From IMG/VR virus record IMGVR_UViG_3300039191_000223, positions 38,700-102,699 of that record: a DNA stretch of 64,000 bases. One strand, 5' to 3'. The position numbers and the translations under genes are program-made. Position 1 is the first letter of the stretch. The number at the start of each line of letters is the position of its first letter. The notes below the pieces were generated by a model, which saw only the letters and a list, made by a program, of their open reading frames with translations, ran no database searches and was not told where the DNA came from. Source of the stretch: a virus. This document shows positions 9,852-43,099 of this stretch, piece after piece.

Positions 9852-9883
9852 AAAGAAAAGCCCTCTTCGGAGGGCTTTTCTTT
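9852..9883. terminator. intrinsic terminator, bidirectional form
   Basis: AAAGAAAAGCCCTC-TTCG-GAGGGCTTTTCTTT. Confidence 0.85.
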
Positions 9884-25346: not shown

Positions 25347-25496
25347 TATTGATTAGTCGCACACTATACCAGAAGCGTTATGGGGTTGCAACAGAACACA
25401 TTTAACCTTTCCAGTAAAGTAACAAAAAGGGGCTCTGAAGAGCCCCCTAAAACCATATTATGATCTAAGAGGCTGGGAACAGCCTCATTTTGTAAA

Positions 25497-25930
25497 TCAT
25501 GCCACGATCTGTAGCGATGTACCGCATTCGGCGCAGAATTTACTCGTTGCCTTATTTTTGGTACCACAAGTTTTACACGTTGGCTTAGCCTTGACCGTGA
25601 TCGGTTCGCGAATGGACTTGTTACCAGCAGTCTCACCCACAAGCTTCATAACCATTGCATATTCTGTGTCTTCCATGGTGAAGCTTGCTACGGTCTGAAA
25701 CTTCTGATCTGAAACTGACCCCTCAACCGTAATTCCCACATCACATGCGGCAGCACCATCATGTATTGACGATGAGTATGTTGCTGTGGTTGTGATTCCG
25801 CCTCGCATACCTTGTGGGTAATATGATGTCGGAATTATATCAGACGCATATGTCATAACCGCCGGTTTCGGCTTTGCAAACTTATAGGTGACACGAATAA
25901 GTCCATCCTCCGCACCAACTCCGCGGCACT
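25497..25930 (-). pseudogene. 5'-truncated gene with C-terminal zinc ribbon
   Basis: CKTCG...FCAECG; 5' end replaced by the GC-rich insert. Confidence 0.6.
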
Positions 25931-41156: not shown

Positions 41157-41231
41157 TGGTCCTCTCAACAGGATTCGAACCTGTGTCTTCTGGGCTTCAA
41201 CCAGACGCTACGCCAACTCAGCTACAAGAGG
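41157..41231 (-). tRNA. tRNA-Phe(GAA)
   Basis: Loop TTGAAGC, CCA. Confidence 0.9.
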
Positions 41232-41235
41232 AAAA

Positions 41236-41500
41236 CGCATGTTTTTGACGGTATACATCTAGAAACATGCAAAACTACCTTGCCTTTAACGACTACTATA
41301 ATCCCCGGTCGTTGACGGATATCCATTGGTGTGGATTAGTATCTTTCGGCGGCGCGAGCGCAATGCTCATGTGATCCGCGTGGCTGGCAACCTAAGATAC
41401 CACTCTTAGGTTGAGTTCCGTAACAATGGATAGGGGCGTTTCAGCACATGCTCCGACTTTTTGGCTTAGTCGGGGGACTCGGAGTCCCATCCAATGTTAC
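41236..41500 (-). ncRNA. candidate multi-hairpin ncRNA
   Basis: At least seven strong hairpins, no credible ORF. Confidence 0.55.
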
Positions 41501-41515
41501 CCGTTTTATGGGCAT

Positions 41516-41544
41516 AAAAAAAGGCGAATCTTACGATCCGCCTT
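41516..41544 (-). terminator. intrinsic terminator (putative attenuator)
   Basis: AAGGCGGATC-GTAA-GATTCGCC-TTTTTTT. Confidence 0.85.
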
Positions 41545-41571
41545 CTCAGTACTCCCTTGTAGGGTTGCCGG

Positions 41572-41715
41572 TTAGAGTTCTTTACTCCTTGGGCTTACTG
41601 AGAAGGCATGCTTACGATCATAATTATCGCAGGCGAGCGCTTTCACAAACAGGTTCGCAGGGCGTTCCTGTAGGGAATGTTGTTCGCATTTAATAAACGT
41701 AATCGAAGTCATCAT
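41572..41715 (-). CDS. putative attenuator leader peptide (47 aa)
   Basis: AGGAAAAG-ATG; MMTSITFIKCEQHSLQERPANLFVKALACDNYDRKHAFSVSPRSKEL; contains the 12-nt antiterminator strand. Confidence 0.72.
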   Translation of the reverse strand: MMTSITFIKCEQHSLQERPANLFVKALACDNYDRKHAFSVSPRSKEL

Positions 41716-41784
41716 CTTTTCCTATTAACTTAGTTAGGGCTTTCGCCCACAGGGGTAAACCTGTATATGTCTATTTAGTGTTCT

Positions 41785-42069
41785 TCACAAAAAATCTGAA
41801 TCATCAGACTTGATGGGATGCATTGTACTGCTTGTATTTAGTTCTGTCAACACCTTTTTATATTTTCTTTCTTCTTCATCACCAAGAATGCTTGTTACTT
41901 GATGATGAAGAATAGGGTCACTCTTACTCAGGCGTTTCATTCGCAGTTTACTATCTAGTCTAGATTTCCAATCATCATACGGGAGCCTGACATAATAGTA
42001 GTACAATAGAAAGGTGTTTGTTACAGGTAACATAACTAGCCAAAAAAGCAGGCTTCTATTACCGTCCAA
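41785..42069 (-). CDS. hypothetical membrane protein
   Basis: Hydrophobic N-terminus. Confidence 0.5.
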   Translation of the reverse strand: MDGNRSLLFWLVMLPVTNTFLLYYYYVRLPYDDWKSRLDSKLRMKRLSKSDPILHHQVTSILGDEEERKYKKVLTELNTSSTMHPIKSDDSDFL

Positions 42070-42082
42070 AGCGAATCACGTA

Positions 42083-43099
42083 TCATCGTCTTCTGACTCT
42101 TACACAATCATTCTGGGTGGGATACGACGGTACGTTTTCAAATTCAGGGACATCATCCTCATCATCCTCATCATCCTCATCATCCTCATCATCCTCATCA
42201 TCCTCATCATCCTCATCGTAATTATCAGAAAGAAGTTCCCCGTTGATCATGTGGTGCATTCTAGCAACAGAGTCCTCCAATGTCAACCCGAATACTTGAG
42301 TGGAAATAACCACATCTTTGATATGCGCTACACCCATGCCCTTGGTTTTCAATACCCACTCATCTAGGTTTCCAATAACGTCATTTGCGCGGGCAAACAC
42401 AGCTTCGATATAAACCCTACGGGCAGCAGCACTCGGCATACCAATTTGCTCAACAACATCAAAGCGGCTTGGCCGGTTGATAAGACGTGCGGGCATTCTC
42501 TCTGGATGATTCGTCGTTGCAATGAACATCACATTGTCAATCTGACACTCCCCATCGAGTAGAGCAAGTAGAGCACCTTCATTTCGAAGCATGCTATCTA
42601 TATCTTCAAGAATAACAACAATCGGACGCACCTGTTCGATCCTACGAAATGCTTGTAGTCCAGCAATCGCATTTCCGGGATCATTAACATAAAACACTAC
42701 ACCACCCATATCGACAATATGGTTGGATACCAAATTGATCGTTGAAGTCTTACCACTGCCCGGAGGGCCATAAAGCATGATTCCGCGCTTCCACAAGTAC
42801 CCATATTGTCGGAACTTGTCTTCGTTCTTCCAAAACTCCTTTACAAGTTGCAGGATGTTGTCTGACTGTGTATCTGGGAGATGGATGAGTTCATCGGTCT
42901 CATTACTATGGGCCTCAAAGTATACTCCACGCATACTGTCGAAAATGTTGTATTGTCCAGCAGGCACGGTCTTTATGACCCGACCTGTTGGAAAAAATAC
43001 TGTGCCATCTGCTTCGATTGCCCATTGGCAGGCATCGTCAGAATTTAGTTCGTCGGGATCGTAATCTGCATTATCGGACATTTTTGAACCTCTCTCCAT
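42083..43099 (-). CDS. AAA+ ATPase with acidic tail
   Basis: GPPGSGKT, ILEDID, ATTNHPE, NRPSRFD. Confidence 0.92.
   Translation of the reverse strand: MERGSKMSDNADYDPDELNSDDACQWAIEADGTVFFPTGRVIKTVPAGQYNIFDSMRGVYFEAHSNETDELIHLPDTQSDNILQLVKEFWKNEDKFRQYGYLWKRGIMLYGPPGSGKTSTINLVSNHIVDMGGVVFYVNDPGNAIAGLQAFRRIEQVRPIVVILEDIDSMLRNEGALLALLDGECQIDNVMFIATTNHPERMPARLINRPSRFDVVEQIGMPSAAARRVYIEAVFARANDVIGNLDEWVLKTKGMGVAHIKDVVISTQVFGLTLEDSVARMHHMINGELLSDNYDEDDEDDEDDEDDEDDEDDEDDVPEFENVPSYPTQNDCVRVRRR
42151..42217. repeat. 9-nt tandem repeat encoding (DDE)n
   Basis: About seven copies of CATCATCCT, in frame. Confidence 0.9.

Follow-up and report, generated by a model that had tools for sequence, protein, structure and literature searches.

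The 102.7-kb contig analysed here comes from an uncultured lake phage, and may be a fragment of a jumbo phage, since its portal protein is 54% identical to that of XacN1, a phage of 385 kb. Coordinates are those of the window, i.e., the whole 64,000-nt stretch of DNA under study, and all features discussed at the locus are on its minus strand. In order of transcription (Table 1), a sigma70-type promoter with a predicted transcript start near 41815 is followed by a highly folded leader RNA of ~300 nt (z = -4.2 for the folding of the 316-nt leader), which contains a short open reading frame (ORF) and ends in an intrinsic terminator; beyond the terminator are a second structured stretch and then the first tRNA genes of a tRNA-rich region.

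Table 1. Features of the leader and adjacent DNA, in order of transcription
Feature	Position	Strand	Remarks
Sigma70-type promoter, TTGACA-17-TACAAT	41850-41822	minus	Matches 11 of 12 consensus positions
Weak hairpin followed by U6	41811-41789	minus	-6.1 kcal/mol; end of upstream 94-codon ORF and very start of leader
CTAAATA motif	41778-41772	minus	No promoter support in the contig
Two small hairpins	41764-41737	minus	5' untranslated part (100 nt); second hairpin GGGC-GAAA-GCCC
AGGA, possible ribosome-binding site	41723-41720	minus	4 nt before ATG1, 7 nt before ATG2
47-codon ORF, candidate leader peptide	41715-41572	minus	From sequence only
Region 1 (ORF codons 2-5)	41712-41700	minus	Pairs with 41622-41608, closing a hairpin domain inside the ORF
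Degenerate terminator copy within ORF	41644-41600	minus	GAAAGCG 41644-41638, GATCGTAAG 41619-41611, GCCTT 41607-41603
P1, 5' strand (antiterminator strand)	41607-41596	minus	ORF codons 37-40
P1, interior	41595-41552	minus	Two hairpins, three-way junction; AAGGAG 41590-41585, stop codon TAA 41574-41572
P1, 3' strand	41551-41540	minus	Shares its last 3 nt, GGC (AAGGC at most), with the base of the terminator 5' arm
Intrinsic terminator, 8-10 bp stem	41544-41516	minus	GTAA loop 41534-41531, T7 41522-41516
Structured non-coding stretch	41500-41236	minus	z = -2.7; no Rfam family match
tRNA-Phe and tRNA-Asp	41231-41078	minus	First genes dependent on read-through

From the promoter to the tRNA genes

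Fourteen sites on the minus strand match the sigma70 consensus in at least 11 of 12 positions, 12 of them with a perfect TTGACA. All 14 of these near-consensus promoters (mostly TTGACA-17-TAxxxT) are in the window, and 13 fall within its tRNA-rich part (600-43150), compared with five such sites on the plus strand. This clustering suggests early transcription of the tRNA region by the host polymerase. The CTAAATA motif in the leader had been taken in the original prediction, made from the sequence by itself, for a late-type motif. It was considered as a T4-type or cyanophage-type late promoter and dropped, because it is neither enriched (eight minus-strand copies against 11.8 expected) nor placed before genes in this genome (one copy of the eight is within 150 nt of a gene start).

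The intrinsic terminator, GGCGGATC-GTAA-GATTCGCC-T7, is present as predicted at 41542-41516, with a hairpin energy of -12.1 kcal/mol for the 8-bp stem and -14.6 kcal/mol for the 10-bp stem. In a scan of our own, the minus strand of the contig has seven clean strong terminators, of which this is one; a ready-made terminator scan, unlike ours, does not list it, and our guess is that the ready-made scan extends the stem into the T-run. A variant from a lake has a GCAA instead of a GUAA loop (change at 41533), so that a GNRA tetraloop is retained. Four DNA runs from lakes and salt lakes gave near-identical low-depth fragments and one loop variant, and thus no useful microdiversity. A look-alike of the terminator, which agrees with 41510-41544 at 32 of 35 positions, the GTAA loop and the bases following the T-run among them, is found in JGI contigs Ga0306864_1000001, Ga0307978_1000015, and Ga0307930_1002942. 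These are AT-rich contigs from lakes, 12.7, 125.5, and 166.6 kb long; in them the look-alike sits behind a gene that, in our reading of its C-terminal translation, resembles rhodopsin. This is an unrelated context, and either convergence or a terminator module common to the phage and an abundant lake organism may account for the resemblance.

A dense run of tRNA genes was said to come directly after the terminator. The tRNA genes are indeed downstream, but the first of them (tRNA-Phe, starting at 41231) is 285 nt past the T-run. Most of the interval (some 265-280 nt) can be folded into a long closing helix around several hairpins, for which neither an Rfam match, a paralogue in the contig, nor an exact match in IMG/VR was found. 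A search of 41200-41870 against Rfam 15 (E up to 10) returned only weak generic matches to terminator-type sRNAs, all below their gathering scores, and none to a curated aptamer or T-box model. No sigma70-like site was found on the minus strand between 41616 and 40989, the next promoter being at 40989-40961, so tRNA-Phe and tRNA-Asp need read-through of the terminator for their transcription. The terminator is thus upstream of genes with no other promoter as far as sigma70-type sites are concerned; phage-specific promoters could still serve them.

Several other features were noted in the course of the survey. Part of tRNA-Asp (41138-41087) is matched, with 3-9 mismatches and unlike flanks, by salt-lake contigs with depths of 150-800; these may carry the tRNA-Asp of an abundant organism, and so offer a clue to the identity of the host. 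Among the genes of the tRNA region is one for an RNA ligase (PHROG 968; 8065-6878, minus strand), which would be expected if tRNAs are repaired once an anticodon nuclease has cut them. A compact unit at 9883-9775 (minus) combines a very strong terminator (-19.6 kcal/mol, T-run at 9854), a promoter immediately after it (9843-9816), and a perfect 15-bp hairpin (9813-9775). Finally, a tRNA with anticodon CUA, of amber suppressor type and labeled “Pyl” by ARAGORN, is encoded at 46218-46143 (minus), ~3-7 kb upstream of an AAA ATPase gene, and has the same relative position in at least 10 IMG/VR contigs. The pairing of this tRNA with the ATPase looks conserved, since the position is kept even though the ATPases are only 42-51% identical.

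Pairing between the reading frame and the terminator

The sequence GCCTTCTCAGTA (41607-41596), within the ORF, was noted originally as the perfect 12-nt complement of TACTGAGAAGGC (41551-41540), and the complementarity is exact. It is not a chance pairing: a 12-nt complement to 41552-41521 arose within the leader in none of 3000 shuffles, and the contig as a whole has eight perfect inverted repeats of at least 12 nt with loops of up to 100 nt, against 0.2 in shuffles. The resulting helix (P1) was described as including the 5' arm of the terminator, which is true of GGC and at most of AAGGC (3-5 nt), but not of the whole arm. The further claim that the two structures exclude each other holds, the overlap being 3-5 nt in the case of P1 and the whole hairpin in the case of an extended form described below. 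In the folding model, then, the leader has an antiterminator that is mutually exclusive with the terminator, and whose 5' strand is within reach of a ribosome on the ORF.

The competition comes down to two copies of GCCUU, one in the ORF (41607-41603) and one in the terminator (41525-41521), which are rivals for a single AAGGC. They belong to a wider resemblance, in which GAAAGCG, GATCGTAAG, and GCCTT within the ORF mirror GAAGGCG, GATCGTAAG, and GCCTT of the terminator. GATCGTAAG comprises the terminator 5' arm and loop and has an exact second copy at 41619-41611; among shuffles, 0.8% contain a 9-mer that directly copies some piece of the terminator. In energy the alternatives are close: a 12-bp P1 with a 5-bp residual hairpin has -36.5 kcal/mol, and a 9-bp P1 with an 8-bp terminator -34.3 kcal/mol, while forcing the full terminator in the full leader costs 1.6 kcal/mol. 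With a gap of only 1.6-2.2 kcal/mol, fast exchange of a 3-bp strand could let the terminator form despite P1.

For the outermost three G-C pairs of the terminator the computed probability is 0.03-0.39, depending on the ends chosen for folding, and 0.35 in the native leader. Among 150 shuffled leaders the median for these pairs was 1.0, and none was as low as the native value. The six other strong terminators of the contig hold 0.6-0.99 in every context tried. Its plain gene-end terminators (e.g., those at 25428, 44195, and 9854) are like the one at 41544-41516 in having a GC-rich hairpin, often with a tetraloop, followed by a T-run, and in their position a few tens of nucleotides past a stop codon; their hairpins stay folded at these values, whereas 41544-41516 falls to 0.02-0.67. 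Masking of 41607-41596, which had been proposed as a check, raised the terminator pairs from 0.05-0.39 to 0.68-1.0, as anticipated. With 41715-41695 masked or absent, the best fold is an extended antiterminator, in which 41634-41596 pairs with 41552-41524 and the terminator is abolished. The leader therefore has at least three states, those with P1, the extended antiterminator, and the terminator, and every strand that competes with the terminator falls inside the 47-codon ORF. On these predictions, it is well supported that the terminator in this promoter-proximal leader is structurally compromised, and hence conditional or leaky.

The effect of a translating ribosome was modeled by placing a 30-nt footprint at each codon in turn, with position defined by the P site, and folding the remainder at equilibrium. 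The probability of the outer terminator pairs, 0.35 without a ribosome, was 0.13-0.16 with the P site at codons 1-3, 0.48-0.76 at codons 5-16, 0.01-0.43 at codons 17-31, about 1.0 at codons 32-44, and 0.35-0.47 at codons 45-47, where pure folding was considered and steric effects ignored. According to the original prediction, complete translation would mask the antiterminator strand and restore the terminator, and a stall at almost any earlier codon would allow read-through. The first part is borne out by the model for late translation, with the ribosome on codons 32-44; with the ribosome on the stop codon it is not, since folding by itself yields only 0.35-0.47, again with sterics left out of account. 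A ribosome within the 44-nt loop of P1 should, however, hinder closure of that helix. The second part fails in this model, because modeled stalls at codons 5-16 favor termination.

The reading frame, its codons, and its relatives

The evidence on whether the putative leader ORF is translated is mixed. As first described, it has 47 sense codons, read directly from the sequence, and is preceded by an AGGA ribosome-binding site, with a spacing typical of genes in this contig; there is thus a short ORF with a ribosome-binding site between promoter and terminator. The accessibility of its start site (0.50-0.52) is like that of real starts (0.47 ± 0.12) and exceeds that of 81% of random ATGs (0.41 ± 0.09). 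An ATG-initiated ORF of at least 47 codons is found in 5% of shuffles of the 300-nt leader, as against 32% when the whole 584-nt gap is shuffled, and the opposite strand of the same stretch has a chance ORF of 81 codons. The codon-usage score, 0.03 per codon, lies between those of coding windows (0.31 ± 0.16) and spurious ORFs (-0.12 ± 0.12), with 2.9% of real windows as low and 13.7% of spurious ORFs as high. Codon adaptation as low as this is a stronger objection to an ordinary protein gene than to a leader peptide, whose sequence is dictated by RNA pairing. Among 1.84 billion representative sequences the only match to the predicted peptide was the ORF itself, in a single-member cluster, and Pfam gave no match; none of the sequencing runs listed with this DNA is recorded as RNA.

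The codon content had been the basis for proposing a sensor of the whole tRNA pool. The description itself was accurate: 34 different codons specify 18 amino acids, with no Gly or Trp and no run of any one residue, so that the runs of regulatory codons, or enrichment in them, that might point to particular amino acids or tRNAs being sensed are not found. The use made of it does not hold up. A count of 34 codons is the level of random sequence, and is reached by only 8% of real coding windows (mean 29.6); it points to weak codon bias and not to design. Gly is missing from 5.7% of real windows and from 18% of random frames, and its absence here is not significant. It was correctly noted that there is no tRNA-Gly, and this is true by ARAGORN of the entire contig, which may itself be incomplete; ARAGORN finds no tRNA-Tyr in the contig either, but Tyr occurs in the ORF, whereas Trp, for which the phage has two tRNA genes, does not. 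Nor do the amino acids of the ORF mirror the downstream tRNAs any more than those of ordinary protein windows do, under four definitions of the downstream set (p = 0.19, 0.64, 0.19, and 0.07). With codon diversity, lack of Gly, and tRNA mirroring all set aside as evidence, the idea of a whole-pool sensor of tRNA damage is without support, and we consider it quite unlikely.

Comparative searches returned the same phage or nothing comparable. The neighboring AAA ATPase gene (42083-43099) has two close relatives, P0001 (96% identical) and P0002 (71%, on a Logan contig), but IMG/VR scans with all three sequences recovered only the same phage, ending just before the leader. A family-wide scan of IMG/VR gave 80 ATPase loci of up to 50% identity, and in no case was the ATPase followed by a tRNA array. 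When IMG/VR was scanned for DNA patterns matching P1 with the terminator, or the downstream RNA, nothing was found; the only match in an INPHARED DNA search was tRNA-Asp; and there is no paralogue of the leader in the contig. The cassette is also absent from the heads of the tRNA arrays of XacN1, Xoo-sp13, RAS14, and RsoM2USA, cultured phages related by their portal proteins. In these the first tRNA directly follows a protein gene, with a consensus promoter and no terminator or leader, and no homologous ATPase was found apart from a marginal partial match in Xoo-sp13 (E = 3e-4). Xoo-sp13 and RAS14 have sigma70 sites matching 12 of 12 positions just before the first tRNA. The C-terminus of the ATPase (42216-42100, minus) is a long acidic (DED)n repeat, which appears to break assemblies, since IMGVR_UViG_3300012267_000010 ends inside it and reads seem to be cut there (42148-42225).

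Possible functions and comparison with known systems

If the leader has a single function, the best candidate mechanism, to which we give a probability of roughly 0.4, is a translation-coupled, promoter-proximal transcription attenuator at the head of the phage tRNA region. Host RNA polymerase would start from the promoter at 41850-41822 and produce the folded ~300-nt leader, which could take up any of three states. In one, the 12-bp P1 would hold the foot of the terminator, leaving a 5-bp hairpin 3 nt from the U-run; in another, the extended antiterminator of about 25 bp would swallow the whole terminator; in the third, the full 8-10 bp terminator would form. The ORF would be translated, and ribosomes would presumably set the balance, because all the strands in competition with the terminator lie inside it. 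A ribosome passing codons 32-44, or one on the stop codon within the P1 loop, would free AAGGC and bring about termination; if ribosomes were late, absent, or stalled early, the antiterminator would stay in place and transcription would read through into the 280-nt RNA, tRNA-Phe, tRNA-Asp, and beyond. Through this coupling of translation to termination the leader might respond to some physiological signal.

At the other extreme, nothing need be sensed at all. The leader could be non-coding, with the ORF a chance frame and the terminator constitutively leaky; P1 and the terminator copies would then fix the ratio of the ~300-nt leader RNA, possibly an sRNA or a processing site, to a read-through tRNA precursor. 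Strong structure over the whole ORF (z = -4.2), a codon score that is less like that of genes than that of spurious ORFs, a variety of codons no different from random sequence, a peptide with no homologue, and the occurrence of long open frames here, whether the 81-codon chance ORF on the opposite strand or the frames of this length in 32% of shuffles of the 584-nt gap, would all fit such an RNA. Evolution should, however, arrive more easily at a weak terminator than at a strong one opposed by three or more built-in competitors, and the competitors are all in one frame, with a correctly spaced AGGA and an open start site, in an ORF that is a 5% event in the leader proper; this reading seems to us rather unlikely. 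About equally doubtful is an ordinary small early gene for a 47-aa protein, monocistronic, with its own promoter and gene-end terminator, P1 as a structure stabilizing the mRNA 3' end, and incidental read-through into the tRNAs. The layout is like that of other gene ends in the contig (e.g., a stop codon at 25497, 45 nt, the terminator at 25428, then tRNA-Cys), the ORF was called by a gene caller in a JGI contig, and its ribosome-binding site and start accessibility are typical of real genes. Against this, few real windows score as low in codon usage (2.9%) or are as codon-diverse (8%), the peptide has no homologue among the 1.84 billion representatives and no Pfam match, and a small gene leaves unexplained why this terminator alone is undermined by upstream sequence.

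A regulatory leader might also be controlled by something other than a ribosome. A protein, a tRNA, or a small ligand could bind the three-way junction of P1 or the domain inside the ORF and shift the balance between terminator and antiterminator, following the logic of riboswitches, T-boxes, and RAT elements. In ON-type riboswitches a helix closes the junction, and the 3' strand of that helix continues into the terminator; P1 has just this arrangement, and the leader has a multi-state fold. Ligand-dependent P1 helices are, however, usually far less stable than a perfect 12-bp helix, no Rfam family was matched even at E = 10, and neither the T-box sequence nor a conserved bulge was seen, so that factor-controlled antitermination appears improbable, somewhat more so than the leaky terminator or the small gene.

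What a translation-coupled attenuator might respond to is a separate matter. Conceivably the cassette is a working gauge of translation, which would switch on replacement tRNAs when decoding slows generally, whether because an anticodon nuclease cleaves tRNAs, because the cell starves, or because host tRNAs are lost late in infection: ribosomes would lag or stall early in the 47-codon frame, and the built-in antiterminators would win. We regard this as a long shot. If true, it would be a leader-peptide attenuator applied to tRNA genes, with no amino-acid-specific control codons. The tRNA arrays of phages are now viewed as counter-measures to depletion of host tRNAs and to tRNA-cleaving defenses, but we know of little on how their expression is timed or dosed, and full-text literature searches found no published account of such a control logic for tRNA genes. 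A terminator that reads the progress of ribosomes would, if real, provide direct feedback from decoding capacity to tRNA supply; if there is only a leaky terminator or a small gene, the locus is ordinary. Because the promoter is near-consensus sigma70, the element should be tractable in E. coli or in a cell-free system without its host.

The closest parallels are the leader-peptide attenuators of enterobacterial amino-acid operons, trpL, hisL, pheL, thrL, ilvL, and leuL. Like the phage leader, these have a short ORF close to the promoter and an intrinsic terminator ahead of the genes under control; an alternative helix, formed between a 5' strand within the ORF and a 3' strand that is also part of the terminator; and near-copies of the competing strands, strand 1 resembling 3 and strand 2 resembling 4. 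The phage ORF differs in being longer, at 47 codons, and in having no run of regulatory codons; its main helix overlaps the terminator by only 3-5 nt; without translation, its computed default state is not termination but partial read-through; and the regulated genes are phage tRNAs, in a system known here from sequence and folding.

A further parallel is the pyrBI attenuator, with its 44-codon leader pyrL. Control there depends on how far the ribosome lags behind the polymerase: formation of the terminator hairpin is blocked by the ribosome itself, and close coupling leads to read-through. The phage leader is similar in having a long ORF with no amino-acid-specific control codons, and by analogy its outcome would also depend on the ribosome-polymerase distance. 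The direction would be opposite: in the phage, 27 nt separate the end of the ORF from the hairpin, and a ribosome coupled closely to the polymerase would favor termination.

For the regulated genes rather than the regulatory device, the nearest counterpart is a tRNA operon of Anabaena sp. PCC 7120, a supernumerary array that is silent by default and expressed when translation is impaired (PMC8421152). Its control is by TrcR, a transcriptional repressor of the RHH family (PMC10272220). It is thus a repressor-controlled cellular element, in contrast to a phage leader ORF with a terminator, and the likeness between the two would lie in the conditional expression of spare tRNAs.
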